From NCBI GenBank assembly GCA_016839625.1, contig JAEOTY010000021.1:2263-26262 (forward strand): a stretch of DNA of 24,000 nucleotides. The letters are read 5' to 3'. The notes below the pieces were generated by a model, which had not been told where the DNA came from, searched no databases, and saw nothing but the letters and a program-made list of their open reading frames with translations. This DNA comes from Candidatus Hodarchaeota archaeon. Lineage in GTDB: Archaea; Asgardarchaeota; Heimdallarchaeia; Hodarchaeales; Hodarchaeaceae. Position numbers and translations under genes: made by a program. Below, in pieces: positions 1 to 24,000 of the stretch; the first letter of the stretch is position 1; each line of letters begins with the position of its first letter.

Positions 1-3000
1 TGAATCATTGGCATTGTCTTCTCCTGGGGTAATTTCTCCATATGGGATATTAGTATCATTAATTAAAAGTGCTGGGCCTCCTGGTGTATGATCTAACCCA
101 AAGGCAACCCAAGCTTGGCTAGTGAAATTTCCCACGTTTTGCACGGTGACCTCAATTTCCCATGGATCCTCATCAGTCATAATTGAATGGCATTCATATG
201 AAGCTAGTTCAAAACGCTCATCACCGCCATCGACTCGCTCACCAGATTGATAAGTAACATTTAGGAGCCAATAGAAAATGTTCATAGCCAATTGCGAATT
301 ATTATAGCGTCCTGGATTCAGGTTTGTTGGAAATGGATTGTCCCACAGGTCGTCATTAAAGACATCTTCATCAGCAACGAAGACTGCTCTTCCATTATTT
401 TGGTCATAGTACATTATTGTGGGTTTTCCGCTCTCCTGAACGAGAGGTGCTGCAGATCCGCTAAAGTAAGCATAGGGGGCATCTATGAGTACTTCCTCAA
501 TTTCAAATGGGGTAGTTGTCAGAGGATGTGTCACAAAATCTGTTGTAGGACCACCACCACCTCCATAGTTCCAGGTTACGCCCAAAGAATTTGTTGCATA
601 ATTATAAAACTGATGCTCATAATCCCCAATGAATAGTACTCGCCCGCCAGCGTTGAGATAATTGGTTAGATTGCCGCTTAACCACTGATAATATGCTTCT
701 TCAGAAGGAATATTAAAGGAATCATTGTAGAAGGCAGCAAGTGGTTGTCCAAGTATATAGGCATCATAATATTCTAGGATTATATCCGTAGGTGGTGTGT
801 GGGCTGAGGCGGGATACCAATATTCGATCGTTGCTCCGAGACCAAAGAGTTGGGTGACAAGATCGTCAAATTCAAATTCGAAGACATCTTCAGCTGGTTT
901 ATTGGGTTGTTGTGTTGTATGTAATCCCAATTCTATTCTTCCATAAACCCCAAACACTGGATAACCTGTCGTATTATCAATGCCATCACTAATAAATGCA
1001 AAGAATATATTGTCAAACCCAGGATCTGATGTACGTGTTATAGTTGAGGAAATGTTGCCAATCCAAGAAGAACCTAGTACAGATAACTCTAGTTGTATTG
1101 GGTTTGGGTCTTGGGGATCAGTCGATTGATAAATTGTAAAATTATCTCCAGTCGCAATGGTTAAATTATCGATATATATTAATACTTCAGAGGCGCCTTC
1201 AAAGCTTACATTATACCAATACGCTCCTGCAACAGTATCATTATAGGGGTGCTGCCATTTGGGAGTGGAAGCCACTCCTAATGCAGAGAGGTTCCCATTA
1301 GTCTGTTTACTCCAATCATGATAATCAATACCAGTAGTATCTTCTGACCACGATCCATCTACCAGAATGGTTTTTCCTTCGAAATCTTCGTACATCTCTG
1401 GTAGTATTGTATACTGTTCTGTGAATGGAGTGCCTACACGATTATTTGCCTGTTTTGGAGCATTGTCTAAAATTGTCTTTGCGCCTGTGAAACTGACTTT
1501 TCCTTTTCCTTGGGCCATTTCATTAAACCCAAGATTGGTCGCCCCTTGTCTAAGAGCAATTTTAATCGCCGTTGGAGACGCTCCAGGATGAGATTCGATT
1601 AAATTGGCACTCACTCCAGCTGCAACGGCTGCAGATACTGCAGTTCCTGTAAAAATATCGAAATATAGCGTATCATTATTATCCGCACCTTTCCATCCAT
1701 AACCAGGGTCGTCGTTTCGTTCTTCATTGGTAGCAAAAGAATGACTTGCTCCTAGCATGTACACTCCAGGAGCTACCACATCAGGTTTGGAATGTTCAGT
1801 GTCGGGGACTGGTCCTCGTTTAGATTGGAGCCACATTGCATTTGTCTCTGTTGTCGCCCCAACTGTTAGCGCGGCTGGGGCTGTTGCGGGAGCATTGATA
1901 GTATAGTATGGTGCTATGTCATCGTCATCATATCCTTCAGGTGAATTAAAATCACCAGCCGGAACTATTACGAGCGCTCCACGAGAAGTAGCTGCTTCAA
2001 TTGCTGCAAGGATCGTGGATGGTGTTGTGACTGAAAAATCATCCAAAAGGATGACATCAGCTCCGTGGTCAACTGCCCATTCAATCCCTAAAATTATTGC
2101 AGCATCAGAGTATTCGGATCCATCATCACTAGTTACCTTAACATCAAAAAGAGAAGCGCCTGGTGCGAGTCCCATTTGAGTTCCAATATTGATTGAAAAA
2201 TTCATTTCTTGAATTTCATAAGTAGGATTAGTTACGCGCGGAAATGGGTAAGAGAATGGTACAGAGGCCTTATATTTCCCTCCACAGGTTGGTGTACCTG
2301 CAACAACGGATGCAAGTGCGGTTCCTCTACCATTGCGATCTATAGTATCACCATCGCCATAAGCATCATATGAATCGATCACTTTAGAATCATTAGTTGT
2401 TATCCAATCATCATCTTGATCATCAAGCATGGGGTGATTCTCGTTTATCCCTGTGCTTAGAATCGCAACTATTACTCCACTACCAGATGTATTGTCATAA
2501 TCAGCTTCAACTAGATTGTGGGTTTCGTTTAATAGAAGGGGGAAATCACCTACATAGGGATTATCGTTTTGAGTAAAACTCGATAGCTTTGCCAGAACTC
2601 CTTCTGCTACTGGGATTATATCATCCACATGGCGGATGTCTTCAAGATTAGGAATGTCTTGGATAGTACAACTTACTTGAACCACTGGAATCAATGAGAA
2701 GACCCTTTGAACCTCTACCCACTCTGGGAAATCAGGTACGCGATCCGACCAATAAATAAATGTACTCTCTGTTGCATTGGGATCTTCTCCCGAATTAAGA
2801 CGTCTTCTGATGTCTTCGAGGAAGATCTGCGATTGAACATCTAAACTCGACTCTATATTGTCTATATTGTCTAGGGTTTCACTCAAGGATGAAACATTGG
2901 CCGTAGGATCATTCTTTAACGTTTTGATCCTTGGTTCTTTCGGTGTGCTATTGAATATTGTCAGATTTGTCATAAAGGGAGTCAAGAGTAATACAAGAGA

Positions 3001-3036
3001 GAAAATTAATAGAAAATTCCTTTTAATGATTTGCAT
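1..3036 (-). CDS. Secreted subtilisin-like (peptidase S8 fold) protein, predicted catalytically dead. Partial: the C-terminus lies beyond the left window edge.
   Basis: The ORF is absent from the supplied track because it runs off the edge. My manual minus-strand translation from the ATG at 3036..3034 stays open down to position 1 (1012 codons). The N-terminus MQIIKRNFLLIFSLVLLLTPFMTNL looks like a signal peptide or anchor. Subtilase blocks are GSGVIVAILSTGINENHPML, DRNGRGTALASVVAGT, GLAPGASLFDVKV, GIEWAVDHGADVILL, GALVIVPAGDFN, KPDVVAPGV and GTAVSAAVAAGVSANLIESHPGASP. The C-terminal half is non-protease (e.g. NAGGRVLFIGDYEH, GRAVFVADEDVFND). Confidence 0.8.
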   Translation of the reverse strand, partial: MQIIKRNFLLIFSLVLLLTPFMTNLTIFNSTPKEPRIKTLKNDPTANVSSLSETLDNIDNIESSLDVQSQIFLEDIRRRLNSGEDPNATESTFIYWSDRVPDFPEWVEVQRVFSLIPVVQVSCTIQDIPNLEDIRHVDDIIPVAEGVLAKLSSFTQNDNPYVGDFPLLLNETHNLVEADYDNTSGSGVIVAILSTGINENHPMLDDQDDDWITTNDSKVIDSYDAYGDGDTIDRNGRGTALASVVAGTPTCGGKYKASVPFSYPFPRVTNPTYEIQEMNFSINIGTQMGLAPGASLFDVKVTSDDGSEYSDAAIILGIEWAVDHGADVILLDDFSVTTPSTILAAIEAATSRGALVIVPAGDFNSPEGYDDDDIAPYYTINAPATAPAALTVGATTETNAMWLQSKRGPVPDTEHSKPDVVAPGVYMLGASHSFATNEERNDDPGYGWKGADNNDTLYFDIFTGTAVSAAVAAGVSANLIESHPGASPTAIKIALRQGATNLGFNEMAQGKGKVSFTGAKTILDNAPKQANNRVGTPFTEQYTILPEMYEDFEGKTILVDGSWSEDTTGIDYHDWSKQTNGNLSALGVASTPKWQHPYNDTVAGAYWYNVSFEGASEVLIYIDNLTIATGDNFTIYQSTDPQDPNPIQLELSVLGSSWIGNISSTITRTSDPGFDNIFFAFISDGIDNTTGYPVFGVYGRIELGLHTTQQPNKPAEDVFEFEFDDLVTQLFGLGATIEYWYPASAHTPPTDIILEYYDAYILGQPLAAFYNDSFNIPSEEAYYQWLSGNLTNYLNAGGRVLFIGDYEHQFYNYATNSLGVTWNYGGGGGPTTDFVTHPLTTTPFEIEEVLIDAPYAYFSGSAAPLVQESGKPTIMYYDQNNGRAVFVADEDVFNDDLWDNPFPTNLNPGRYNNSQLAMNIFYWLLNVTYQSGERVDGGDERFELASYECHSIMTDEDPWEIEVTVQNVGNFTSQAWVAFGLDHTPGGPALLINDTNIPYGEITPGEDNANDS

Positions 3037-3225
3037 ATTTTTTGCCTCGTCTCCTGAGAATCAAATTATCTATAATAATTATGAAAAGTCCTTGCTTATA
3101 AAAATAAGTTATCACATTTAAGCAAGTATGCTTTGTCAGCTACGATGTCATTGAAAAATAAGTGAGTAAATGTCCTCAAAAGCTTTTCTTACTTTGATTC
3201 AAGGATTTTAGAGGTCGTATAACAA

Positions 3226-6144: not shown

Positions 6145-7126
6145 TCAAATTTTAATTTCTTTAGCAATTTCTTTCACAGTATGAATAAAATTGTCAAAAT
6201 CTACCGATCTACTCCTGTGATTAGTGATTGCTACTCTAATCGCAAATTCTCCTCGTAATATTGTATAGGAGGGTACTGCAATACCGCGTTCATGTAGTTG
6301 ATGAATAATTTCCTCATTTAATCTAGTCAGCTTTTCTTGATCCATACCTTCTTTCTGGTATCTAAAACATACGTTATTCATGGATGTGGGTGCAAGGAGT
6401 TCCAAATTCTCTTCTTTCTCTATTAACCCTGTCAGATATTCTGCTTGTTGAATATTCTGTTCTACTAATCGTCCGTATTTTTTTATTCCATGCTCTTTTA
6501 GGCTCATCCAAATTTTTAATGTTTTGAATTCGTCTGACATTTCAAAACCATAATCAGTGAACCATATCTTCCCTCCTGTTACCCCCGTATCCCCTGTGAA
6601 CAATAAGCTGGGCTAAGAGCGAATGTACGGTAGTGATCTTTTGCGCTTTTTACAAGAACGCAACCAGCTGCATAGTTCACATACATCCACTTATGAAAAT
6701 CAAAAGCAATGGAGTCTGCTTGTGTTATCCCATCCGCTAGGTGATTTGACTTTGGAGCTATTTTGGTTAATGCACCAAACGCGCCATCGATATGGAACCA
6801 CATGTTTTGTTGTTTAGCAATATTTGCTAGAGCATTAAGATCATCTACAGCTCCTGTATTGACTGTCCCAAGATTTCCAATGATACAAATCGGTTTGTAA
6901 TTATTCTCCCTATCACTTTCTCTCTTATTTCCTCGTATATTGAGTGTATGTCCTGTCCCTCCGTAGGTAGAAGTTGTTGAAACTTCTCCTTTACTTCCTC
7001 TGGGATTGGCCGCCATACTGGTTGTTCTCAGATACTCTTTAGATAATCAACCATATTATCGATGATTCGATGTCCTAATTTTCTCGTTTCTTCCCAACTT
7101 TCAAGATCTAAAGTCTCTTCTATCAT
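6145..7126 (-). pseudogene. Decayed group II PLP-dependent amino-acid decarboxylase
   Basis: Three pieces lie in three different frames. (1) ATG at 7126 gives MIEETLDLESWEETRKLGHRIIDNMVDYLKSI, then TGA (7028-7030), then EQPVWRPIPEEVKEKFQQLLPTEGQDIHSIYEEIREKV. (2) The track ORF 6579-7016 contains GTVNTGAVDDL...WFHIDGAFG...DSIAFDFHKW, the PLP-lysine motif. (3) The track ORF 6145-6603 contains the C-terminal small domain (FKTLKIWMSLKEHG...). About 150 codons between the N-terminal region and the GT..TGA.D block are missing. Confidence 0.75.
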
Positions 7127-11066: not shown

Positions 11067-11279
11067 TTATCGAGTAGGACTAGAAAAAGTAAGGATGTCA
11101 TCAATCAATTCAACGTGAGTTATTAACATCCGTCGACAACAATAACGTTGTAGCTCAAAAGAATCAAGAAGTTCATTTGGGTCTTTTCCTTCCTTTACTC
11201 CTTGTTTAAACTCCTCATATAAGTGAGCTATTACCTTACCACAGGTATAGCAACGGATAGGGATCATCATTGCTCTCAT
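11067..11279 (-). CDS. rpoN: DNA-directed RNA polymerase subunit N (Rpo10/Rpb10 homolog)
   Basis: The motifs [13 protein letters not shown]...[16 protein letters not shown] are the diagnostic Zn-binding CxxC...CC signature of RpoN. The true start is probably the Met at 11270 or 11267 (MMIPIRC). Confidence 0.9.
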
Positions 11280-12071: not shown

Positions 12072-12845
12072 CTAATCATAAATAAATTGAATAGTCTTCC
12101 GTTCAGAGTCAGCCCAAGAGGCTCGTTCGGATTCTACCATTAGTTTCATGAGCATACGAACATCTGGCGGCGGGAGAGACGACCAAGATTGCTTCATTTT
12201 AACAATATCAAAAGCTGTGACCATATCATAACCGTGTTGAAAGGCATACTGGTATAACTCATCAGTATGGGACTTTAGGGTTTTCCAGTACACCCGAAGT
12301 CGTGTTTGTTCAGAATCCCACCATTTAGCTTTATCAATTTCAACCAAATACTCAGAAATCATAACTAGTTGGGGAAGAGTTAATTTTTTCTTCAGAATAG
12401 AATTTTGGAAAGGATAAACTAGCGCTACTTCTTGTAAATCAAGAATGTGGAAATTTAATACTCGGGCAAAATCAAGTATAAATTCGCCCCACGTAATGAG
12501 CCATTGTTGCTTGAGCTGTGGGTCATCAGGTACCATCCAGCGCCAAGGTTTTTTTACCCACGCAGGCAGAACTGGTTTTACTCGGGGATCAACGACTCCT
12601 GGTTGAAGTGTTGTAGTAAGAGAAGGTTTTACAGTTGATTCAACTGCTGTACGAATCTCAGGTATTGTCTTGTGTTGAAAAGATGGAGTTGTTGAAGGTC
12701 GTGACATTTCAGTGCTTATTTGTGTTAAATCTGGAGATTCTATCTCCGTCTTTTCCTTCGCAACCTCATCTAAGACTGATCCGAGAATATCTATTGATTC
12801 AGTTTTTTTCTTCTCTTTGTCTCTTTTTCGTTGCATTTCAGCCAT
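12072..12845 (-). CDS. vps25: ESCRT-II subunit Vps25-like protein with an N-terminal low-complexity extension of about 100 aa
   Basis: Residues from about 100 to 257 follow the tandem winged-helix pattern of eukaryotic VPS25: PWRWMVPDDPQLKQQWLITWGEFILDFARVLNFHILDLQE...PFQNSILKKKLTLPQLVMISEYLVEIDKAKWWDSEQTRLRVYWKTLKSHTDELYQYAFQHG. Compare human FPPFFTLQPN..TRQKQLAAW..LVL.FCR...LFNN..L.RKL...I..VL..L...GN.EW.D... Confidence 0.75.
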   Translation of the reverse strand: MAEMQRKRDKEKKKTESIDILGSVLDEVAKEKTEIESPDLTQISTEMSRPSTTPSFQHKTIPEIRTAVESTVKPSLTTTLQPGVVDPRVKPVLPAWVKKPWRWMVPDDPQLKQQWLITWGEFILDFARVLNFHILDLQEVALVYPFQNSILKKKLTLPQLVMISEYLVEIDKAKWWDSEQTRLRVYWKTLKSHTDELYQYAFQHGYDMVTAFDIVKMKQSWSSLPPPDVRMLMKLMVESERASWADSERKTIQFIYD

Positions 12846-12887: not shown

Positions 12888-14036
12888 TTAACCCCCAAAT
12901 TGGTCTTTCCACTCTTCAAAACGCGTCAATTCTTTGGGTGACACTGAGGGTTTGATACTTTCCATACCTACAAGAAAATCCTTTGAACTTGGGGCTCGAG
13001 GTTGAATGGTTGTATCTTTTAGGGCTCCATCAGCGTCGAGCTCCCTGATCGGAGACATCAATGCTTCACGACAGAGTAGAGCAATATCTGCAGCTGTGTA
13101 TCCAGCAGTATACTTTGATAATTCCTCAAAACTCACATCAGGATCTAGATTCACGCCACGAGTATGAATCTGAAACATTTTTTCTCGGGCTCCTGTTGTT
13201 GGCAACGTTACATATACCCGTCTTTCAAATCGTCGGCGCATTGCTGCATCTATATCCCAGGGTGTGTTTGTTGCCCCAACTGTCACCAGTAGTTCATCTC
13301 CTGTACCAAATCCCTCAACTGCTTGTAATAATTGTGTTTTTACACGACGCATTGCTTCTCCTTCAGAACTGCCTCCTCTTGCTCCTGCTAGTGAGTCAAT
13401 TTCGTCAAAAAATATTATAGAAGGTGCTTCTTCAGTCGCCCGCTCATATAATTCCTGTACTAACTTTTCTGATTCTCCTAACCATTTGCTAATCAAGTTC
13501 GCTGCGCTGACAGAAAAAAATGTTGAGTCTACTTCTGATGCAACGGCCTTGCAGAGATAGGTTTTTCCACATCCAGGGGGGCCGTACATTAAAATTCCCT
13601 TCCATGGTTTCCGAGCACCTTTGAATAAATCGGGCCTAGACATAGGGAGGATGATGGCTTCTCGTAAGGCGCGTTTTGCACCTTCCATACCTGCGACATC
13701 TTCCCATTTAACATTGGGTTTTTCACGAACAATTACACTTGATATTGCTCCAGATATTTCATCTTCTGCTTCCGGTGATGCTGAGGCTGAAGAGCTTGTC
13801 TTACCTTCAGAAGAACCTGGTATACCACGAATTTCTTTTACACGAAGAATATATTCCATGGCTTTTTGATAGTACATATTCTTCATATTTGGGTCTTCAG
13901 TAAAATTAATCAGCTTTTGTAACTGTTCTGCAGCACTTACATAATAGCGTACAGCTTGTTGAGCTTGGCCACCTTGATCGAGTTTATATGCCATGGCTGC
14001 ATTCTTTTTGGCAGCATCAAACAATGGTGAACTCAT
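12888..14036 (-). CDS. vps4: Vps4/CdvC-type AAA+ ATPase with an N-terminal MIT domain
   Basis: The MIT-like three-helix N-terminus is AMAYKLDQGGQAQQAVRYYVSAAEQLQKL...YYQKAMEYILRVKEIR. Walker A is ILMYGPPGCGKTYL and Walker B is IIFFDEIDSL. The second region of homology is TNTPWDIDAAMRRRFERR. The product is 382 aa. Confidence 0.92.
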   Translation of the reverse strand: MSSPLFDAAKKNAAMAYKLDQGGQAQQAVRYYVSAAEQLQKLINFTEDPNMKNMYYQKAMEYILRVKEIRGIPGSSEGKTSSSASASPEAEDEISGAISSVIVREKPNVKWEDVAGMEGAKRALREAIILPMSRPDLFKGARKPWKGILMYGPPGCGKTYLCKAVASEVDSTFFSVSAANLISKWLGESEKLVQELYERATEEAPSIIFFDEIDSLAGARGGSSEGEAMRRVKTQLLQAVEGFGTGDELLVTVGATNTPWDIDAAMRRRFERRVYVTLPTTGAREKMFQIHTRGVNLDPDVSFEELSKYTAGYTAADIALLCREALMSPIRELDADGALKDTTIQPRAPSSKDFLVGMESIKPSVSPKELTRFEEWKDQFGG

Positions 14037-14104: not shown

Positions 14105-14719
14105 CTACCCTTTCTTGATTTTCTCCAATTCTTTTTGTAGTTCTTGGGATCGAATGTCAGGTGAAGGTAGTCCAAAATCAGCCGCAGCTGCCTTAGAAGC
14201 ACTTAATTCTCCTATTATCTTGTCTACCATTTCATCTTCCTCAATATCGGAGGTCATCATCTCAAACCCTTCATCCATGGCTTCAGTAGCCATGTCAACC
14301 CTTTCGGTTTCGATCTCCATCTGTTCAAGGACACCTTCTAGTTGAGGAATCTTAAGCTGTCTATTCATGGCGTGAAGTGTTTTCACTAGTCCCTTAAGAT
14401 CCTGACCTATGGCTTGAGTGGCTGCAGCTTGTTCTAGCTTGAATTTAATTCCTTTTACTCGACTCGCCATTTGTTGACATCCACGGGCCATGGTTCGATT
14501 TTTAGCTACATCTTTCGCTAATAGTCTTGCGGTCGACATATCGCCTTGTTCGATGGATCTCTCGACTTCCTTGAGCATCCGTTTTTCTTCTTTAATGAGT
14601 TTTCTCCGCTGACGATCCATTCGTCTTTCTACCATGCGAAGTCGACTAATCCATCTTCGTGTGGATTTTGCTCCACTACCTCCGCCTTTCAACCATTGTC
14701 CGAATTTATCGAAAACCAT
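14105..14719 (-). CDS. ESCRT-III (Snf7 family) protein, Vps2/24/46 (CHMP2/3/1)-like
   Basis: The 204-aa product has a basic N-terminal helical hairpin (RRMDRQRRKLIKEEKRMLKEVERSIEQGDMSTARLLAKDVAKNR), an acidic C-terminal half, and a terminal amphipathic helix SQELQKELEKIKKG that fits the MIM1 pattern L-x3-L-x2-[LI]-K. Confidence 0.85.
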   Translation of the reverse strand: MVFDKFGQWLKGGGSGAKSTRRWISRLRMVERRMDRQRRKLIKEEKRMLKEVERSIEQGDMSTARLLAKDVAKNRTMARGCQQMASRVKGIKFKLEQAAATQAIGQDLKGLVKTLHAMNRQLKIPQLEGVLEQMEIETERVDMATEAMDEGFEMMTSDIEEDEMVDKIIGELSASKAAAADFGLPSPDIRSQELQKELEKIKKG

Positions 14720-14721
14720 GT

Positions 14722-15396
14722 CTAGGACCTCAATCCTTCTTCAATCTGTCGTCTCATTTCATCTAGCTTCTTTTTATCAGCTTCACGCTTGGCAGGAGCT
14801 GCTGTTTCAGTCACAGTAGTGGTAGGAGTGGATGTTTCGATATTTGCTGCTGGTAATGAGCCTGACATTTCAGCTTCCAGCTCAGCCATTTGCATAGAGA
14901 TACGATCATCTGCCTCGACATCCATACCAATTTCTGTAATTGAGGTATCAGTCAAGGCTTCATCCATATCTGAAACCATCTCTATGGACTCTTCCAAAGA
15001 CATCATGACTTCTTCTGTTTTTTCAGGAGAAGCAGCTTCAACGTTAGCATCAATAGCCGTTTGGGCATGCGATAAGGTGTCTGTAAGAGTGACGTTATCC
15101 GCAGAGATGTCTAACGTATCAATCGTTCTTTGAAGGTTTGCAATTTTATTGTAAGTGTTTGTAACCTGAGTTAAATAGAGTTCACGGCGTTTTAATGCCT
15201 GTTGAGCTCCTAGTTTATTTCCAGCTTTCAACAGAGTTCGAGCAAGCTCATATTGTTCATTCGATTGTCTTTGATAGTTTTTAATTTTGACTTCCATTTG
15301 ATTGATGGTTCTCTTTAATTTGGCTTTCGTTTCAGTCGAACTACTAGGTTTTTTTCCGGTTAAAAAACCTCTAAATCTTTTCAAGGGTAAATTCAT
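14722..15396 (-). CDS. ESCRT-III (Snf7 family) protein, Vps20/32/60 (CHMP6/4/5)-like
   Basis: The 224-aa product has a basic N-terminal half with the Snf7-like block ARTLLKAGNKLGAQQALKRRELYLTQVTNTYNKIANLQRTIDTLD, a strongly acidic C-terminal half, and a C-terminal helix KKKLDEMRRQIEEGLRS. Its stop lies 2 nt before the start of the next ESCRT-III gene. Confidence 0.8.
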   Translation of the reverse strand: MNLPLKRFRGFLTGKKPSSSTETKAKLKRTINQMEVKIKNYQRQSNEQYELARTLLKAGNKLGAQQALKRRELYLTQVTNTYNKIANLQRTIDTLDISADNVTLTDTLSHAQTAIDANVEAASPEKTEEVMMSLEESIEMVSDMDEALTDTSITEIGMDVEADDRISMQMAELEAEMSGSLPAANIETSTPTTTVTETAAPAKREADKKKLDEMRRQIEEGLRS

Positions 15397-15600: not shown

Positions 15601-16317
15601 TCAAACCCCTGGAAAAGAAATGACCATTCCATCTAGAGTTTCAGTTTTAATTGCAATTTTCTGTTGGATTAGTTTTGTCAGAGCTTGATTCACACGTTCT
15701 AATGTCCATGATGTCTCTTGAACCAACTCGGTTAAACCAATTTCTCCTTGAAATCGAGCTGCTAGTTCCAGTATAACTTGGTGGTCTTTGGTTAGATTTG
15801 GATCTACAAAAACAACCACTTTCATGCCAGCTAATTGACGGATTTCATGAATCATACCATTTTTTTCTAATAAACTTAGAGCAGTTGTGATATCAGCGAT
15901 TGACGTTGTAATGCCTCGACTCTCATCTGTTAATTTTAACACTAATTCAGATACACTTAGAAGACCACCAGTTTGATTTCTCACTTGTTTTCCAATTTCA
16001 AGTATCCTGATTGCCAAAAAATTGTGATATTCATCCGTTCCCTTCAAACGCTGAATGAAACCTGATTTTTTACCGACTTCATAAATCCCGAGTGCACGTG
16101 GAAGACCGACTTCTTCCCTAAGATTCATTAAACGTTTTGAGAGTTCGGGATTTTTCTTTATATCAGCTTGATACTTTTTTTCTAACGTTTGTAACTCAGT
16201 GTGAAGCTCTTGGACTTTCTTGCTCATAGTATCTAAGGATTTCAGTGCCATTTCTGCACCTTTCCGCTTCATTTCAGCTTCCCTGGTGAGCTTCTCTTCA
16301 ATTCGTCGTAATCCCAT
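15601..16317 (-). CDS. vps22: ESCRT-II subunit Vps22/36-like protein (EAP30 domain)
   Basis: The 238-aa product is collinear with human SNF8/EAP30. Matching blocks are KYQADIKKNPELSKRLMNLREEVGLPRALG (vs KHKQEIRKNPEFRVQFQDMCATIGVDPLASG), YHNFLAIRILEIGKQVRNQTGGLLSVSEL (vs [28 protein letters not shown]) and DHQVILELAA (vs DHTVVLQLAE). Confidence 0.85.
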   Translation of the reverse strand: MGLRRIEEKLTREAEMKRKGAEMALKSLDTMSKKVQELHTELQTLEKKYQADIKKNPELSKRLMNLREEVGLPRALGIYEVGKKSGFIQRLKGTDEYHNFLAIRILEIGKQVRNQTGGLLSVSELVLKLTDESRGITTSIADITTALSLLEKNGMIHEIRQLAGMKVVVFVDPNLTKDHQVILELAARFQGEIGLTELVQETSWTLERVNQALTKLIQQKIAIKTETLDGMVISFPGV

Positions 16318-16555: not shown

Positions 16556-17893
16556 ATGGTGCTCGAGCCGGCTTCCGGGAGATCAAACCTGTTTTGTTCA
16601 TTTTGTGGTACTATGGTTCGTGAATTAGAATCCCAGAAATGTTTAGACTGTGGTGCAGCATTCTGCCAGCAATGCGCCTCCCGCTTACAAATCAATGGAA
16701 TCCAACTTAAATGTCCATGTGGTTCAGCCAATATCGAATCTGGATCTCCAGAACAAAATTCACAGACTCAAACTTTGGAACATATTTTTAGTTTGAAACG
16801 CTCTTTAAAACAAGTAGGTTATCGTCCCGTAATTATGCTTAAACGAACTGGCCATCTTGAATCAAGATTGAGAGCTTTTCGAAAACAATTTCTTATCCCA
16901 GGAAATCAGATTGATAAAATATTCCTCGACACCAAAAAGATTGAAAATTTTATACTATCAGAGTTTCAGGAATATTCTTCCAAATTAAGTCGACTATATC
17001 GTAGTGTAATGGGCCTAGATTCCTCATTCATCGATCATCGCAATCTTTCTCTTCAACTAACGCTTTTTCATAAGCAGGTTGATAGTTTTGATCAAACAGT
17101 TCAAGACAAACTTCAACCAATTTTTAGTTTAATTGAGCAATTAGAGGATAAGTGCGATCAGTTTGACGAGATGTCACGACATCTTGGACGGTGCTTTGAT
17201 GCTTTTGTTTTTGTACCTGGTGAACTTGCTATTGGTTTTTTCTCTAATGTTGAATTAAGGAACAATCGGATAAGAAAGTTTACAATAGACTTGTTAATTA
17301 CTACTGACCGAATTGTAATGTTTTGTAAAAAGAGGACCAAAATAATTGGTCAAAAAACAATAATTTATGATGAATTTCCTCCTGAAGATCTGATTGATGT
17401 TCAAAAGACAAATGCGGGTTTCTTAAAACGTGATAAGCTTCAAATAACAACCATTAAGCATGATTATGAATTACGTGCGAATTTCGAGACTTTAATGCGT
17501 ATCTTTGATGCTCTCCAATTGAGTTACTACGGCCGTCCAAGTGAAATCTATATTCATGAACCTTTTCGAGATTGGTCTTCAGAGATTTATCAAGAAAAAA
17601 TACTCTCTTACCTTAATTTCCAAACTAAAGTTAGTGGGTCTTCCAATCCAACCAATGACCATGAAAGAGAACCTGATTTTGTAACAGGGGTTCTCGACGA
17701 CCGTCTTCGTGATCTGCGTCTTCGCAAACTAGCAAATGAAAAGGCATTGCAAGAACTTAAGGAGGGGCGGAAAAAAGTAGCTAGTCGAGATTATTTCGAC
17801 CTAGTTAGACAATTCGAATTAGAACTAGCCAAAATAAATGAAGCGATGACAGAATTACTAGTCCGAACAGGAAAAACAAATCTTTTGAATTAA
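16556..17893 (+). CDS. Uncharacterised ESCRT-cluster protein with an N-terminal 8-Cys RING-like zinc finger, a central PH/GRAM(GLUE)-like region, and a C-terminal coiled coil with a steadiness-box-like motif
   Basis: The product is 445 aa. Cys spacing is C14-x2-C17-x11-C29-x2-C32-x4-C37-x2-C40-x12-C53-x-C55. Residues about 218-321 (GELAIGFFSNVELRNNRIRKFTIDLLITTDRIVMFCKK...DLIDVQKTNAGFLKRDKLQITTIKHDYELRANFETLMRIFDAL) follow the PH/GRAM strand pattern. Residues 378-435 have coiled-coil heptads ending in KKVASRDYFDLVRQFELELAKI. Confidence 0.7.
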   Translation: MVLEPASGRSNLFCSFCGTMVRELESQKCLDCGAAFCQQCASRLQINGIQLKCPCGSANIESGSPEQNSQTQTLEHIFSLKRSLKQVGYRPVIMLKRTGHLESRLRAFRKQFLIPGNQIDKIFLDTKKIENFILSEFQEYSSKLSRLYRSVMGLDSSFIDHRNLSLQLTLFHKQVDSFDQTVQDKLQPIFSLIEQLEDKCDQFDEMSRHLGRCFDAFVFVPGELAIGFFSNVELRNNRIRKFTIDLLITTDRIVMFCKKRTKIIGQKTIIYDEFPPEDLIDVQKTNAGFLKRDKLQITTIKHDYELRANFETLMRIFDALQLSYYGRPSEIYIHEPFRDWSSEIYQEKILSYLNFQTKVSGSSNPTNDHEREPDFVTGVLDDRLRDLRLRKLANEKALQELKEGRKKVASRDYFDLVRQFELELAKINEAMTELLVRTGKTNLLN

Positions 17894-17906: not shown

Positions 17907-18536
17907 TCAGAGATTCGCCAACTCTCTACGAAAATCTGAAAGCCATCGTGCTGTTTGTAATTCTAGCTTTTTCAATTCATCTTGTCTTAATAGCTGGCCT
18001 GGTTTCTGTCTATCCATCCACTTAATCCACTCATCGATATCTCTTGTTACCCAATGATTAGACCCATAGACATGAGCTTCAGTTAAAATTGCATGGAGCT
18101 CATCTAAATATGGTAGAATCCGATCTACGGTAGCAATGGCTTCTAACCGAAGAAGGTCCAATACCTCGATGGCGTTGGCAACAAACTCGGCAGCAATCTT
18201 TGGTAATTTTTTAATTTGACTATAATCAATACGGTTTCGAGCATTATCATCTGTTCCCTCTGTTATCCGGAGTTTTTCAAGACCGTGGGGATATTGTTGA
18301 TCGATTTTTTCTTCCCGAATGAAATCATCTAAATCAAATTGGTAGGTTTCTAGCTTTGCTCGGATTGCAACAATGGTCGTTAAGAGATTTTTATGCTGTT
18401 TATGAAAGATATTCGGATCTAACTCGCCTTTTTCGTATGTCCGAGATAAAAGATCAAGAGTCCCAATAGTCGCAAATAATTGCCCTTCCAATTCCCAACG
18501 TTTTGTTAGATTTGGAGGAAAAGTCATTAATTTCAT
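17907..18536 (-). CDS. vps28: ESCRT-I subunit Vps28-like protein
   Basis: The 209-aa product has an N-terminal core LFATIGTLDLLSRTYEKGELDPNIFHKQHKNLL. Its C-terminal four-helix-bundle block AAEFVANAIEVLDLLRLEAIATVDRILPYLDELHAIL...EWIKWMDRQKPGQLLRQDELKKLELQTARWLSDFRREL is collinear with eukaryotic VPS28 (...FIT.MD.LKL......I.P.L.DL...L....WL..L..M.ASDEL.E.Q.RQL.FDLE.AY..F...L). Confidence 0.85.
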   Translation of the reverse strand: MKLMTFPPNLTKRWELEGQLFATIGTLDLLSRTYEKGELDPNIFHKQHKNLLTTIVAIRAKLETYQFDLDDFIREEKIDQQYPHGLEKLRITEGTDDNARNRIDYSQIKKLPKIAAEFVANAIEVLDLLRLEAIATVDRILPYLDELHAILTEAHVYGSNHWVTRDIDEWIKWMDRQKPGQLLRQDELKKLELQTARWLSDFRRELANL

Positions 18537-18537
18537 C

Positions 18538-19329
18538 CTATCCCAAGTATTCCGTTTGTTTTCGAGCTATATAGAGTTCCTTGGAGTACTTTTTATATAA
18601 ACGTGAGTATTCGAAAATTGAGATCTCACCAGAGGCATAACGGTCTTCAAGTGCCGCTAATAGCTCTGAGATAGCAATACGTTCTGATTCGATGCTATCT
18701 TGGGTTGAAAGCCTTTTGCCCTCATCACTATCTGAGGGTTGTGCTTGAGTCATTTGTTGTGCATGAAATCGAGCCAATTCTTCATCTTTTTCTTGTATTT
18801 GTTTAGTTAATGAGGATAACTCTGTTCTTAGCGCTGTTGTTTCTGCAAATACTGTCTTATTTGGAGACACTGGAGGTGTTTCTATTATACGTGCTACTGT
18901 ATCGCGAACAGATTTAGCAGTTTCTCCTTTAGGAGTGGGAGGCACTCTAGACATCAGATTTTTTAGTGCAATGATCACTTGATAGAGATGAAACTCAGCA
19001 CGCCAATTATCCAAGATTCGTAATTGAACAAAACCATCATCATCAATGTTAGGGTGATCCATCCATCCCACTGCTGTTACTACAGGAGGAACGTTAGGAA
19101 AGTATTCTGGAAGAAATATTTCAAATGTAAACATGTTACGGCCACGATTGGTGGTATATGTCAAGGTTCCTTTCCATCTAGCCAAGGAATCTCCCACAGG
19201 ATTAAAACCAAAAGCTGCTGAATTAGAATATACCAGTTGTGCCTCTCGAGCTAAAATAAAATCTTTATCCATATTTGTGGCTCCTTTCTTCAAATTAAAT
19301 ACTGAATCATTAATGTATTTAAATTTCAC
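18538..19329 (-). CDS. ESCRT-I Vps23/Tsg101-like protein: UEV (inactive E2 variant) domain, coiled-coil stalk and C-terminal steadiness box
   Basis: The UBC-fold blocks are WKGTLTYTTNRGRNMFTFEIFLPEYFPNVPPVV and DHPNIDDDGFVQLRILDNW. The position of the E2 catalytic Cys (HPN...G.IC.DIL) is Gln102 (codon 19024-19026). The tail LLAALEDRYASGEISIFEYSRLYKKYSKELYIARK resembles the Tsg101 steadiness box (L..AL..G.I.L..FLK.VR.LSR.QF). An alternative start is Met20 (19272). The stop lies 1 nt from the Vps28-like start. Confidence 0.8.
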   Translation of the reverse strand: MKFKYINDSVFNLKKGATNMDKDFILAREAQLVYSNSAAFGFNPVGDSLARWKGTLTYTTNRGRNMFTFEIFLPEYFPNVPPVVTAVGWMDHPNIDDDGFVQLRILDNWRAEFHLYQVIIALKNLMSRVPPTPKGETAKSVRDTVARIIETPPVSPNKTVFAETTALRTELSSLTKQIQEKDEELARFHAQQMTQAQPSDSDEGKRLSTQDSIESERIAISELLAALEDRYASGEISIFEYSRLYKKYSKELYIARKQTEYLG

Positions 19330-19490: not shown

Positions 19491-20711
19491 TTATTTTTTC
19501 CCCCTAGGTTTTTTCACAGTAGTTAAAAAATCTATAATAGCTTCTCCTAACAACTCGAATGCTTGTTCAACATTCTGGCCTGTTTTGGCACTTGTAGATA
19601 GAAAGTAAATCTTGAAACCTCGGTATTGTTCAGCAATTTGAGACAGTCTTTCAACAAATACTTTCGCTTTATTTTCAGACACACAAGGGATTCCCGAGCT
19701 AGATAAGTCTACTTTGTTTCCCAAAACAACTAACGGGACAGGACCATGCCCATTGTTCCGCCAAAGCTCATTCAGCCATTTGGGTATGTTTTGAAAGCTT
19801 TCTGGACGAGTTACATCAAAAACAAGTAATGCACCTACACTGGCAGAATAATAAGCTTTCCGAACGTTATTAAAACGAGGTTGACCTGCCAGATCCCAGA
19901 TCAAGTATTTGATTTGTTTACCACCACTATATACTATATCAGATGTTTTAGCAGCAAGATCGGCTCCTATTGTCATTTGATAGTCATCACGAAATCCTTC
20001 GCCTAAGTAACGTCTCCTAATGGACGTTTTACCAACTGCACCATCTCCAATTAAAATAACCTTTAACGTATGATGTTCTTGAACAAAAGTTGCTTTTACT
20101 GACGTGATAGCTTCATCAATGGCTGCACGTAATTCTGGATTGGTCTTAATATTTTGATCAGTATGATAATTCAGGATTTGTACAATTTGAACGGCTAACG
20201 TACCCACCATATCTCGTGATGTTCCCTTAGATGTCACTATGGCGATAACCAACTCTCCAATGACGAAGAAATGAATTGTTTGAGATTCGAGAGTAAGAAC
20301 CTCCAACAATTCGCCAAGATTGTAGCGGACATAACTTTTTATTGCATAAAAAATGAAGTTCATAGATTCCTTATAGTCAATTTTATCGGAGAGCTGATAA
20401 TTAAACAATAATTGCCCATTGTTCATAAAACATGAAATTAAGAAAATTTCTTCAGTCTTTTTTGCTCGTTCTAATCCAAATTTTTTGAAATCCGCTATCT
20501 GATCCTCTTCAGTTTTTTCAGCTTGAGCATAAGCTTCTTCAATGATGTTCAAATAATCGCCCCGTCCCGATAATGCCTTTTCAAGATCTACTCGAACTTT
20601 CAGTTCGAACTCCTCCATTTCGTCAGGGCGTTGATCATTTGTGATCTTGGTTTCAAGTGTTTTTGGCTCTTTCTTTTCGTTTGTCTCGAAAGAAGAGTCT
20701 TTTTCTTCCAT
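19491..20711 (-). CDS. Fusion protein with an acidic N-terminal region, a roadblock/LC7(longin-like) domain and a Rab/Ras-like small GTPase domain
   Basis: The GTPase motifs are G1 GDGAVGKTS, switch I YQMTIGADL, G3 WDLAGQ, G4 GNKVDL and G5 STSAKTG (aa about 215-400). Residues about 88-182 (IFLISCFMNNGQLLFNY...HFFVIGELVIAIVTSKGTSRDMVGTLAVQIVQIL) show a roadblock/MglB-like alpha-beta pattern. Confidence 0.85.
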   Translation of the reverse strand: MEEKDSSFETNEKKEPKTLETKITNDQRPDEMEEFELKVRVDLEKALSGRGDYLNIIEEAYAQAEKTEEDQIADFKKFGLERAKKTEEIFLISCFMNNGQLLFNYQLSDKIDYKESMNFIFYAIKSYVRYNLGELLEVLTLESQTIHFFVIGELVIAIVTSKGTSRDMVGTLAVQIVQILNYHTDQNIKTNPELRAAIDEAITSVKATFVQEHHTLKVILIGDGAVGKTSIRRRYLGEGFRDDYQMTIGADLAAKTSDIVYSGGKQIKYLIWDLAGQPRFNNVRKAYYSASVGALLVFDVTRPESFQNIPKWLNELWRNNGHGPVPLVVLGNKVDLSSSGIPCVSENKAKVFVERLSQIAEQYRGFKIYFLSTSAKTGQNVEQAFELLGEAIIDFLTTVKKPRGKK

Positions 20712-20976: not shown

Positions 20977-21954
20977 ATGGGTGAATTATTAGGACCTTTA
21001 GATGATCAAATCATTATTTTATTGCAAACATTCAGTCCACTCCTTGATCTAATTTTTGGATTAATCACTTTTTTTGGAGATGAACTATTTATAATCGCAA
21101 TTATAGTTATTATTTTCTTCTGTATCGATAAGGAGATAGCAATTCGATCAGCTTTTTTGGTTGTTTTTACAGGTTTCATAACGACTTCAGCAAAAGGAGT
21201 ATTTGGTCTTAAGAGACCATACATCGTTAATGATGCAGAGATACAAGGAATCCCTGATATTATAGGACAACTTCCAGAAGATTATACTTTTCCAAGTGGT
21301 CATTCATCCAATGCGGGATCATTCTGGACATATTTAGCCACACGTTGGCGTAATCCTAGTTTTTGGGCCATTGCCATATTCATGATTGTAATTATCCCTC
21401 TTTCACGTAGCTATCTAGGTGTACATTGGCCAACTGATATAATTGTGGGAGCTTTGCTAGGAATTTCAGTTGCTTTACTGTTTACTTATTTTTTACCCAA
21501 GATAGAAGTTTTTGTTAATAAAACCTCACCCAGAACTCTTGGAATATTTGCTATAGTTATTCCTATTTTAGGGGTTATTATTTCTTACATGCTTACAATC
21601 GGAATGGGTAATGAAATAGAACACGCTGATCCTAGTTCATTAGGGGGGCTTTTTCTTGGCTTAGCTGTTGGTTATATCCTTGAAAATCGTTATGTAAATT
21701 TGAAAGTGAAAGAATTTCGATCGAACAAGAAAATACTTGTCTATCGGGGAATTGCAGGGGTTATTATTATCCTAGCATTGTACTTTGGTATGAGTGCTAT
21801 TTTTAAAATTCTTTTTGAAGGTTTTCCCCTTGAATATATCTCACGATTCATCAGATATGCAATTCTAGCATTTTTTGGTATCTTTTGTCTCCCATGGTTA
21901 TTTTCTACAATTGAACAAAAATTATTATTGGAGCCTGGAGGTTTAGCGGAATAG
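20977..21954 (+). CDS. PAP2-superfamily membrane phosphatase (phosphatidic acid or polyprenyl-diphosphate phosphatase type)
   Basis: All three PAP2 signature motifs are present: KGVFGLKRPY (KxxxxxxRP), FPSGHSSNAG (PSGH) and SRSYLGVHWPTDIIVGALLG (SRxxxxxHxxxD). There are multiple TM helices, and extra C-terminal TMs follow. Confidence 0.85.
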   Translation: MGELLGPLDDQIIILLQTFSPLLDLIFGLITFFGDELFIIAIIVIIFFCIDKEIAIRSAFLVVFTGFITTSAKGVFGLKRPYIVNDAEIQGIPDIIGQLPEDYTFPSGHSSNAGSFWTYLATRWRNPSFWAIAIFMIVIIPLSRSYLGVHWPTDIIVGALLGISVALLFTYFLPKIEVFVNKTSPRTLGIFAIVIPILGVIISYMLTIGMGNEIEHADPSSLGGLFLGLAVGYILENRYVNLKVKEFRSNKKILVYRGIAGVIIILALYFGMSAIFKILFEGFPLEYISRFIRYAILAFFGIFCLPWLFSTIEQKLLLEPGGLAE

Positions 21955-22156
21955 TAAAGTTAATCTAATTTCTGATACACTTATATTCAATCCTAGCATC
22001 CTTTCAATTATATTATTTACTTTGATAAGTTGGCATTAATCTGTTGAAAAAATAACAGGATTACTCACTATTCATAAATACAGTCACAAATATGGTCAAT
22101 GTTGATATACTTATGTGAGAAAAGAATTTCTCTCTAAAACATATGATGTGAAGAAT

Positions 22157-22930
22157 ATGTCTGAGTCAGAATCCCTTATCTGTCCCAATTGTAGTGAAAG
22201 AAGCCCAGGAGGTTATATTCTTTGTCCATATTGTGGTTTCGATTTGACAAAAATTGTACGGGCAAGAGAACGTGTACGTGTTAATTTTAGAGAAAGATTT
22301 TCACGGATTTGGAGGAGTCTTTTTGACCCGAGACAGAGTCAAAGGCTTTTTAGGGAGATCGGAGTCAATCCTGATCGCACAGGAGCACTATTAGTTTTAT
22401 TTCTTCTTTCAGTAGCTTATGGCTTACGACTTGGCGCACTAGTACTAAAAGCTGGCTTTGATACTGGTGCTTCGTGGCATGATTTGCATTTTTGGTATTT
22501 ATTGATTTCTCCTTGGTTTCTAGCGATTGGTTTTGTTTTTCTGGCACTATTTGGATGGTTTATCAGTAGTTGCGTTGTTTGGTTTATCGCAACCCGACTT
22601 GGTGGCAAAGCGAGTTTTAGAGACACTCAAGGAATTGTTGGTTATTCGTTCGGGCCTTTGATTACTGCTTCACTAATAATTAATCTAATTCTGGCCAGTC
22701 AAGCCCTGATACCAATTCTAGGAATCAATCTAAGTTCTATCACCCCCACAACCGTGGATCAGTTAGTAATTCTTGAGCTAATCAATATTCCCTTTATGGG
22801 ACTTGTTGCTTACCATTGCGGAAACGGTATTCGTTCGGCTCATCTACTCAATAATTATTTCTCATATGGTATTAGCGGCGGTGTAACCCTCTTATATCTC
22901 GTAATTTTCTTTTTACCAGTCATTTTTTAG
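22157..22930 (+). CDS. Membrane protein with an N-terminal zinc ribbon and a Yip1-like multi-TM domain
   Basis: The track ORF begins at GTG 22115, but ATG at 22157 (MSESESLICPNC...) is the likelier start. The zinc ribbon is CPNC-x12-CPYC. About 5 TM helices follow, with a loop and TM layout reminiscent of Yip1-domain proteins. That family call is tentative. Confidence 0.55.
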   Translation: MSESESLICPNCSERSPGGYILCPYCGFDLTKIVRARERVRVNFRERFSRIWRSLFDPRQSQRLFREIGVNPDRTGALLVLFLLSVAYGLRLGALVLKAGFDTGASWHDLHFWYLLISPWFLAIGFVFLALFGWFISSCVVWFIATRLGGKASFRDTQGIVGYSFGPLITASLIINLILASQALIPILGINLSSITPTTVDQLVILELINIPFMGLVAYHCGNGIRSAHLLNNYFSYGISGGVTLLYLVIFFLPVIF

Positions 22931-23004: not shown

Positions 23005-24000
23005 TTAATCAAAAATAATCTCGAATTTCAAGGGGGATGATAAAGTCGGATCAACCACGCGAAAAATAGCCCCTGATGTAAAGATTTTTCCAACTCTCTC
23101 GCTTGTAATCGCTAATTTTTGAGTTTGAAACAGGATTGCCATTTCAGGTCCTAGATTGAATGAATATTGGAGCTGTATAACAAAGTCCTTTAGCTGTTGA
23201 TCACTAGGAGAACGGATTGGAATTGCTTTGAGTTGGTAGCGAGGTGAGCACACAATGCAATCTTCTCGACGTTCAAGAGGAACAGAAGTAAATATTCCCG
23301 CCTTCCCATCCCAAAAAAGATATTCTTTCAAAGGTGGAAGGCCAAGAATGATTTTAAGAGCCTCCTGAACCATTAATCCACCAATAACGAAGGAAACACT
23401 CGATACATAAGGAATGAATTCTTCCTCCTTCTCCTCAGGATGGATTTCTTTTCTTACTTCCCCAAAGGGGGTACAGGCTTTTTGAAGCTCTTCTTCAGGA
23501 ATTAAAGATTGACATTCCAAACAGGGGCTTTTCTGAGGAATAACTACTTGGAGGTTTCCAAGAAAACTATAAATACCTCCAGATACCAATGGAATGTGTG
23601 ATCCAATGGCAAAGGAGTTGATCCAACGTCGTGTTTGGAATGTATCTAAACCATCGAGAATAACTGTCGATGTCTCTAAAGTATGTCTTGGGGCTTTTTC
23701 AATGGGCATGTTCAATTTGTTTATGTGAATTTCGGGGTTTATTTCATGGAGGATCTGAGCAGAAATGTCCACTTTAGCCTTTCCAACATCTGTTGGCCTA
23801 AAAAATAATTGTCTATTCAAATTACTCATTTCAATTGTATCAAAATCAACTAGAATAAGCGTTCCAACTCCTGTCATTGCTAATGAGGCAGCAGCAACCG
23901 TACCCAATGCCCCAAGACCAACTAGTGTTACAGTACTTTGCAGGAGCTTTTCTTGATCCCAATTTTCAATCAACAGTTGGCGATTATACCGATCACTCAT
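23005..24000 (-). CDS. E1-like ubiquitin/Ubl-activating enzyme (ThiF/MoeB/UBA adenylation fold) with a C-terminal extension of about 78 aa
   Basis: The product starts MSDRYNRQLLI...VTLVGLGALGTVAA (GxGxxG) and contains VDFDTIEMSNLNRQ. Two CxxC pairs (C160LEC, C248IVC) form the structural Zn site. A crossover-loop Cys is at KAC176TPFG. The ATG sits exactly at the window edge (23998-24000). An extra C-terminal region spans aa 254-331. Confidence 0.85.
   Translation of the reverse strand: MSDRYNRQLLIENWDQEKLLQSTVTLVGLGALGTVAAASLAMTGVGTLILVDFDTIEMSNLNRQLFFRPTDVGKAKVDISAQILHEINPEIHINKLNMPIEKAPRHTLETSTVILDGLDTFQTRRWINSFAIGSHIPLVSGGIYSFLGNLQVVIPQKSPCLECQSLIPEEELQKACTPFGEVRKEIHPEEKEEEFIPYVSSVSFVIGGLMVQEALKIILGLPPLKEYLFWDGKAGIFTSVPLERREDCIVCSPRYQLKAIPIRSPSDQQLKDFVIQLQYSFNLGPEMAILFQTQKLAITSERVGKIFTSGAIFRVVDPTLSSPLKFEIIFD

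Follow-up and report, generated by a model that had tools for sequence, protein, structure and literature searches.

A UEV-Vps23/Vps28 gene pair, the probable ESCRT-I core, in the ESCRT cluster of a Hodarchaeales-type Asgard archaeon

The UEV-Vps23 and Vps28 genes

The stretch of DNA analyzed here (24,000 nt, hereafter the window) comes from Candidatus Hodarchaeota archaeon (contig JAEOTY010000021.1, assembly GCA_016839625.1, positions 2,263–26,262 of the forward strand) and carries on its minus strand two adjacent genes, one for a protein with a ubiquitin-conjugating (UBC) fold, UEV-Vps23, and one for a Vps28-like protein. [quoted passage not shown] We estimate at about 0.85 the probability that the two genes encode the ESCRT-I core (UEV-Vps23 plus Vps28) of a Hodarchaeales-type Asgard archaeon. 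The genes and their elements are as follows, with models from AlphaFold2 (AF2) and confidences as its predicted local distance difference test (pLDDT).

18538..19272, minus strand: UEV-Vps23 gene, 244 aa from ATG 19272 (UQ_con E 8e-14; homologues 244 aa)
18538..19329, minus strand: longest ORF of UEV-Vps23, 263 aa from GTG, which adds 19 non-conserved codons
18937..19272, minus strand: UBC-fold (UEV) domain, residues 1–112 (AF2 pLDDT ~90; UbcH5-type E2s in Foldseek)
19048..19056, minus strand: HPN motif, His73-Pro74-Asn75, read in the sequence
19024..19026, minus strand: CAA codon of Gln83 (Gln102 in GTG numbering), at the E2 thioester-Cys position when aligned to solved E2s
18859..18936, minus strand: Pro-rich flexible linker, residues 113–138, with PPTP and PPVSP (pLDDT <50 at 118–138)
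18745..18858, minus strand: stalk helix, residues 139–176, predicted coiled-coil segment (AF2 helix H139-176, 38 residues)
18541..18714, minus strand: C-terminal helical hairpin, residues 187–244, predicted homologue of the steadiness box/Vps23 core (AF2 H187-214, H219-243)
17907..18527, minus strand: Vps28 gene, 206 aa from the conserved ATG 18527 (PF03997 E 1.7e-12; homologues 206 aa)
17907..18536, minus strand: longer ORF of Vps28, 209 aa if ATG 18536 is used
18342..18515, minus strand: Vps28 N-terminal helical hairpin, residues 5–62 (helices 5–32 and 38–62), the headpiece-forming part (AF2, Foldseek)
17913..18224, minus strand: Vps28 C-terminal four-helix bundle, residues 102–205, facing ESCRT-II in eukaryotes (AF2, Foldseek)
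19281..19285, minus strand: AGGAG Shine-Dalgarno-like motif, 9–13 nt upstream of ATG 19272
18528..18540, minus strand: gene junction with stop TAG 18540–18538, a non-conserved ATG 18536–18534 and a Shine-Dalgarno-like AGGA (sequence and 20 loci)

The UEV-Vps23 protein, whose sequence includes ...GWMDHPNIDDDGFVQLRILDNW..., matches the Pfam model UQ_con of the UBC/E2 superfamily (PF00179; E 8e-14, 51.8 bits, cut-off 27). When aligned with phmmer to solved E2s, a glutamine falls on the catalytic cysteine ('gfvQlril' vs 'gniCldil' and 'gviCldil'), at ten residues past the HPN histidine, where active E2s have the thioester Cys. The initial annotation had pointed to this glutamine and to the retained HPN motif, and was right in both. 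The same column was followed in a family alignment of 108 full-length relatives, where it is occupied by Q (65), N (17), K (10), S (6), H (4), A (4), R (1), and T (1), never by Cys; the search for a conserved catalytic cysteine in a profile alignment had been set beforehand as a refuting test and none appeared in any of the 108. HPN is largely kept across the family (His in 108/108, Asn in 103/108, and Pro in 99/108), and 105 of its 108 members, including the one in the window, are completely devoid of cysteines. Since the column is so variable it is not catalytic, and since the protein is also free of cysteine no thioester-forming E2 is to be seen in it; as judged from the sequence, the UBC domain is non-catalytic and incapable of forming a thioester. 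The claim that we are dealing with a UEV rather than an enzyme thus holds well.

The AF2 model, computed from an alignment of 28 sequences (mean pLDDT 80.8), gives a UBC core of ~112 residues. It contains helix a1, four strands arranged as a meander in which b2 and b3 make a long hairpin, the loop that bears HPN, and the crossover helix. After this last helix (H96-109) the domain stops and disorder follows, the two C-terminal helices of E2s being absent, which is a trait of Tsg101-type UEV domains. After the Pro-rich linker, the length of which varies among family members, come the stalk helix, with only weak matches of coiled-coil type in Pfam and the PDB, and the C-terminal hairpin, modelled with pLDDT 84–90. 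The Pfam model Vps23_core (PF09454) matches 15 of the 28 relatives (best E 1.6e-5), and these align without gaps to the C-terminus of the window protein.

The annotation of the second protein as Vps28-like is borne out by sequence and model alike. It matches PF03997 with E 1.7e-12 (48 bits, cut-off 24.5) and its AF2 model (pLDDT 83.2) has only Vps28 proteins as top Foldseek matches. The N-terminal domain superimposes on human VPS28 in the ESCRT-I headpiece (6vme; template modelling score, TM, 0.75; root mean square deviation 1.6) and on yeast 2f6m_D and 2caz_E (TM 0.72), and the C-terminal domain on 2j9w (TM 0.87), 2j9v, and 2g3k (both TM 0.76–0.79); the family profile also finds 2j9w, with E 2.6e-4. 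A weak collinear similarity between the N-terminal hairpin of Vps28 and the hairpin of Vps23 (hhalign P 0.0055, with a score attained by 4 of 100 column shuffles) is in line with the literature, in which both are regarded as hairpins of the steadiness-box type. No Vps23-Vps28 fusion proteins appeared in the search for Vps28 homologues, at the sensitivity of that search.

Start codons and the junction between the two genes

Homologues of UEV-Vps23 are nearly all 242–246 aa long, and the database entry of the window protein (P0001) has 244 aa. A GGAG/GGTG motif is kept in related loci at the place equivalent to the AGGAG of the window, and the 19-codon extension from the GTG is not conserved. 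The start is most likely, from the sequence comparison, the ATG at 19272–19270 and not the GTG at 19329, and with this start the glutamine becomes residue 83; the number given to it originally, 102, is correct when counted from the GTG.

At the 3′ end of the gene, the stop TAG (18540–18538) is followed by a single base and then by an ATG (18536–18534), so that the 1-nt spacing described in the initial annotation is exact in its coordinates. We have compared this junction in 20 loci, the window and 19 Hodarchaeales-type genomes from the GTDB genomes. The ATG located 1 nt past the stop is found in only 8 of them, the others having no start triplet there (e.g., ATA, TTA, or TAA), and is therefore not the conserved feature. 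What all 20 loci share is a start codon lying +6 to +10 nt from the stop, the protein then beginning M-[TS]-F-P; in the window this start is the ATG at 18527–18525 (M-T-F-P...), 10 nt after the stop. Database gene calls for Vps28 are overwhelmingly of 206 aa. On this comparative evidence the conserved Vps28 start is ATG 18527. The AGGA in TAGGATGA overlaps the stop, its first A being 12 nt upstream of this ATG, and the Vps4, Snf7, EAP30, and UEV-Vps23 genes of the window have Shine-Dalgarno-like elements at similar distances from their starts. The conserved adjacency (gap ≤10 nt), together with a Shine-Dalgarno-like element in the end of the upstream gene, argues for one transcript and co-production, and thus the layout indicates that UEV-Vps23 and Vps28 would be co-transcribed from one mRNA.

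The ESCRT cluster and the convergent zinc-finger gene

The same strand holds, according to a Pfam search of the window ORFs, a complete ESCRT-II/III/Vps4 set, and the window is a complete Asgard ESCRT cluster of the Hodarchaeales type. The remaining genes discussed here are these.

15601–16317, minus strand: Vps22/EAP30 (Pfam)
14722–15396, minus strand: Snf7, first of two (Pfam)
14105–14719, minus strand: Snf7, second of two (Pfam)
12888–14036, minus strand: Vps4 (Pfam)
12072–12845, minus strand: Vps25 (Pfam)
16556..17893, plus strand: convergent 445-aa protein, with a zinc finger of cross-brace type at the N-terminus, a long helical stretch in the middle and a C-terminus resembling a steadiness box (19/19 loci)
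19491–20711, minus strand: Ras/Rab-like GTPase, directly upstream of UEV-Vps23 (Pfam/NCBIfam)
20977–21954, plus strand: PAP2 (Pfam/NCBIfam)
22115–22930, plus strand: Yip1 (Pfam/NCBIfam)
23005–24000, minus strand: ThiF/E1-like gene (Pfam/NCBIfam)

The Vps23-like, Vps28, and Vps22 genes are co-directed, those of Vps25, Vps4, and ESCRT-III lie together, and Yip1 and the Rab-like GTPase are found beside UEV-Vps23. UEV-Vps23 adjoins Vps28 with a gap of ≤10 nt in 19/19 Hodarchaeales-type loci, and the closest homologues come from sources named Candidatus Hodarchaeales, Hodarchaeota, or Heimdallarchaeota; many of the close UEV-Vps23 homologues bear the NCBI name 'ubiquitin-conjugating enzyme E2 variant'. 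The order UEV-Vps23, Vps28, Vps22 is present in Atabeyarchaeia too. In the Atabeyarchaeum locus of this distant Asgard lineage (L020, 6001–8605) a UEV-Vps23 of 262 aa is followed by Vps28 and then directly by Vps22/EAP30; its Vps28 has 303 aa, with an N-terminal extension of ~100 aa, and a counterpart of the 445-aa gene is missing from between these genes. NCBIfam had no meaningful model to offer for either protein of the pair or for the 445-aa one, nothing was found in the window by Rfam, and a scan for sigma-70 promoters and terminators gave no signal above the shuffle background, sigma-70 models being unsuited to archaea.

The 445-aa gene adjoins Vps28 convergently in 19/19 related loci. 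The protein has no Pfam domain. Its N-terminus forms an eight-Cys cross-brace zinc finger whose best PDB match is the C1 domain of 6ra0 (E 0.0015), the matches to B-box, RING, and FYVE being weaker. The family is very small, with 21 clusters at E ≤1e-3 among 1.84 billion representatives. When distant relatives from the representative search were added to the profile, the last ~60 residues could be aligned collinearly to the profile of the Vps23 hairpin with an hhalign score of 21.6 (P 0.0018), which was reached by 0 of 100 column shuffles (mean 11.4, standard deviation 2.3) and not by the reversed control (13.0). The low-diversity profile restricted to Hodarchaeales gave no similarity to the Vps23 hairpin (12.6 vs 11.5 ± 2.2 for the shuffles). 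This weak to moderate evidence suggests that the 445-aa protein could be a third headpiece hairpin or an extra ESCRT-I subunit, and its features fit the Znr_CC_PH_SB family, the PH part being presumed, a protein of which has been proposed as an Asgard ESCRT-I component (Makarova et al., 2024).

Several other features of the window deserve a mention. The GTPase domain occupies residues 205–392 of the 406-aa Rab-like protein, its N-terminal 200 residues having no Pfam match. Only 2 nt lie between the two Snf7 (ESCRT-III) genes (14719–14722, minus strand), which form a second tightly packed pair in the cluster. At 6145–7016 (minus strand) a pyridoxal-dependent decarboxylase is broken into two overlapping ORFs, one (6579–7016) covering profile positions 190–297 and the other (6145–6603) positions 308–374, while the N-terminal ~190 positions are absent; we probably have here a pseudogene that arose by frameshift or truncation, or else an assembly error. 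An open frame of >1020 codons (1–3060, minus strand) extends beyond the window start, and its N-terminus (~3040) resembles a signal peptide or membrane anchor. Finally, a 70-aa ORF with a CxxC...CC pattern (11067–11279, minus strand) adjoins ribosomal protein S2, and we presume by eye that it resembles RNA polymerase subunit N (Rpo10).

Interpretation and relation to known systems

The reading of the two genes as the ESCRT-I core is based on what has been observed here, i.e., the folds, the lack of cysteine, the domain order, and the gene order and conservation; ubiquitin binding, the contact between Vps23 and Vps28, their stoichiometry, and translational coupling we infer. The cysteine-free UBC domain would bind ubiquitin on cargo non-covalently, by analogy with the tested orthologues (~31–47% identity). 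The stalk helix and hairpin would assemble with the Vps28 N-terminal hairpin, which probably contacts the hairpin of UEV-Vps23, into the headpiece, as suggested by the conserved adjacency, a natural fusion, and published binding. The eukaryotic pathway suggests the remaining steps, for which the genes are present: the Vps28 C-terminal bundle would contact ESCRT-II (Vps22/Vps25), and ESCRT-II would nucleate ESCRT-III (the Snf7 pair), to be remodelled by Vps4. The observed layout points to co-expression of UEV-Vps23 and Vps28 from one mRNA, and with co-transcription and a Vps28 start only 10 nt after the UEV-Vps23 stop both subunits would be made together.

Several observations weigh against this reading. 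In sequence and fold, true E2s stand nearer to the UBC domain than does the Tsg101 UEV family, and the domain keeps HPN. Active E2s of the UbcH5 family rank first in the Foldseek search against the PDB (TM 0.55–0.62 over ~110 columns, E 6e-7), and the Tsg101-type UEV model of Pfam (PF05743) gives E 2.8e-4 with 21.2 bits, below the cut-off of 27; among the 28 relatives, 25 match this model at E ≤0.1 (best 1.3e-5). At the other end of the protein, Vps23_core finds no match in the window UEV-Vps23 itself, and the profile of its last 110 residues reaches the yeast Vps23 core in the PDB (2p22_A) collinearly over the full length but weakly, with E 0.33, generic coiled coils ranking on top. The stalk and the steadiness box, both of them proposed in the initial annotation, are therefore supported by fold prediction and transitive homology, without a direct significant match. 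A crude scan of ORFs of 55–130 aa with GG near the end provided no credible ubiquitin gene in the window, and among the window ORFs scanned with Pfam there was no Cys-bearing E2 gene or any other UQ_con protein; both presumably lie outside the window. Finally, the Asgard orthologues tested experimentally (Odin, Hel, and Heimdall AB_125) are only ~31–47% identical to the window protein.

The closeness to E2s opens two other ways of looking at the UBC-fold protein. It might be an atypical active E2, carrying ubiquitin on a non-canonical residue, as would fit the retention of HPN (invariant His, Asn in 103/108), the best sequence and fold matches, which are active E2s, and the E1-like gene nearby. 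A protein with zero cysteines, a catalytic column that accepts Q, N, K, S, H, A, R, or T, and a model lacking the two C-terminal E2 helices make this extremely improbable, and the sequence evidence strongly disfavours it. Nor does it seem at all likely that we have a UEV of the Mms2/Uev1 type, a chain-building cofactor of a Ubc13-like E2 outside ESCRT. A Cys-less UBC domain nearer to E2s than to Tsg101 would be in keeping with such a role, but Mms2-type UEVs are single-domain proteins. Here the UBC domain is joined to a stalk and a steadiness-box hairpin, the gene keeps its place beside that of Vps28 within the ESCRT cluster in every related locus, and the window ORFs scanned with Pfam include no Cys-bearing E2 gene. 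An ESCRT-I UEV-Vps23 is thus retained, and what is left to weigh is how the subunits are assembled and how they are translated.

With regard to assembly, the heterodimer (1:1) of the initial annotation is not established; measurement of the complex from Odinarchaeota gave a dimer of Vps23 with one Vps28. The core could be a headpiece of three hairpins, either (Vps23)2:Vps28 or Vps23:Vps28 with the 445-aa protein in the Vps37 position, and we give this almost an even chance. It is favoured by that measurement, done by size-exclusion chromatography with light scattering at multiple angles (SEC-MALS; PMC9192718), by the fixed convergent position of the 445-aa gene beside Vps28, by the collinearity of its C-terminus with the Vps23 hairpin profile (21.6, P 0.0018, 0/100 shuffles), and by the proposal of Makarova et al. 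for Znr_CC_PH_SB. However, this similarity is a weak one, to which hhalign assigns a probability of 15% and which the low-diversity profile does not show, and the 445-aa gene lies on the opposite strand. With regard to translation, the initial annotation had taken the 1-nt spacing as a sign of coupling. That spacing was over-read; the layout does indicate co-transcription, and strict termination-reinitiation coupling of Vps28 is possible. The chances are equal that the two genes are simply packed as in an ordinary operon, with Vps28 translation beginning independently from a Shine-Dalgarno site of its own. This is suggested by the conserved start 6–10 nt past the stop, by an AGGA/AGGT element whose distance from the start equals that in other window genes, and by the absence of the +1 ATG in 12/20 loci. 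But a Shine-Dalgarno element within the last codons of the upstream gene is a classic coupling layout too, and what we see fits both.

A doubtful extension of the ESCRT-I reading would have the Hodarchaeales headpiece completed by the 445-aa neighbour and not by a second Vps23, with its hairpin in the Vps37 position and its zinc finger and middle region adding contacts to cargo or membrane. In eukaryotes such contacts come from ESCRT-0 or the GLUE domain of Vps36. If true, this would be a three-gene ESCRT-I module without a one-to-one eukaryotic counterpart. The idea is only partly new because Makarova et al. (2024) suggest something similar for Znr_CC_PH_SB.

In the archaea most closely related to eukaryotes, Asgard ESCRT-I ties the recognition of ubiquitin to the remodelling of membranes and so bears on the origin of eukaryotic cargo sorting, a point already made, with biochemistry, for orthologues of these genes. 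What the window adds is a clean Hodarchaeales example of a very E2-like UEV, which retains HPN and has lost the Cys alone, fitting the proposed origin of UEVs from an E2. The corrected start codons and the conserved junction layout are useful for expression constructs, and the neighbouring zinc-finger protein with a steadiness-box-like hairpin is a modest lead.

Both proteins have a published background. Hatano et al. (2022; PMC9192718) described Asgard Vps23 homologues with Cys-less UEV domains whose ubiquitin binding needs a hydrophobic patch, Vps23-Vps28 contacts by two-hybrid, a stable Vps23-Vps28-ubiquitin complex of Odinarchaeota (2:1 for Vps23 and Vps28 by SEC-MALS), and the case of Heimdall AB_125, where UEV-Vps23 and Vps28 are naturally fused. 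Lu et al. (2023; bioRxiv 10.1101/2023.07.25.550441) named the family UEV-Vps23 (asCOG005829/asCOG007313), found by surface plasmon resonance that Helarchaeia UEV-Vps23 binds both ubiquitin, at micromolar level, and Vps28, showed that Vps28 binds the Vps23 domain, and reported that the Hodarchaeia cluster additionally holds Yip1 and a Rab-like GTPase, as in the window. Between the two studies, orthologues from Heimdall, Odin, Loki, and Hel have been found to bind ubiquitin (PMC9192718; 10.1101/2023.07.25.550441).

With eukaryotic Vps23/Tsg101 the window protein shares an N-terminal inactive UBC fold without the two C-terminal E2 helices, the Pro-rich linker, the coiled-coil stalk, and the predicted C-terminal steadiness-box hairpin, which in eukaryotes pairs with the Vps28 N-terminus. 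Unlike Tsg101, it keeps HPN, scores higher on the E2 than on the Tsg101 UEV model (51.8 vs 21.2 bits), lacks the extra N-terminal helix in the model, and is much shorter (244 aa). Unlike in eukaryotic ESCRT-I, the Vps37 and Mvb12 partners are not recognizable. Vps28 and its eukaryotic counterpart have both domains in common, a headpiece hairpin at the N-terminus and a four-helix bundle at the C-terminus (TM 0.75 and 0.87), with an identity of ~20–23% in structural alignments. The partner of this C-terminal domain in eukaryotes, the zinc-finger/GLUE insert of Vps36, has no recognizable equivalent in the window, where Vps22 is the only EAP30-type protein. Active E2s of the UbcH5/Ubc4 type provide the best sequence and structural matches for residues 1–112 and share HPN, but differ from the window protein, which has no Cys at all, misses the two C-terminal helices, and has the ESCRT-I stalk and hairpin fused to the domain.

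The closest relatives are those of the Asgard UEV-Vps23 family. The gene-cluster figure of PMC9192718 includes Heimdallarchaeote B3_Heim, whose locus (L016) encodes a protein 73% identical to the window UEV-Vps23 in an identical gene order. The UEV-Vps23/Vps28 pair is the already described Asgard ESCRT-I, and its reading as such is correct but a rediscovery, since the family, its ubiquitin binding, and its Vps28 binding have been published (Hatano et al., 2022; Lu et al., 2023; Makarova et al., 2024). The family, B3_Heim included, has the same architecture of Cys-less UBC domain, linker, stalk, and steadiness-box hairpin, and the same neighbourhood, with Vps28 adjacent, Vps22 co-directed, and Yip1 and a Rab-like GTPase; there is no substantive difference, and the window provides another member. 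In Heimdall AB_125 the two genes are fused, in the window they are separate.

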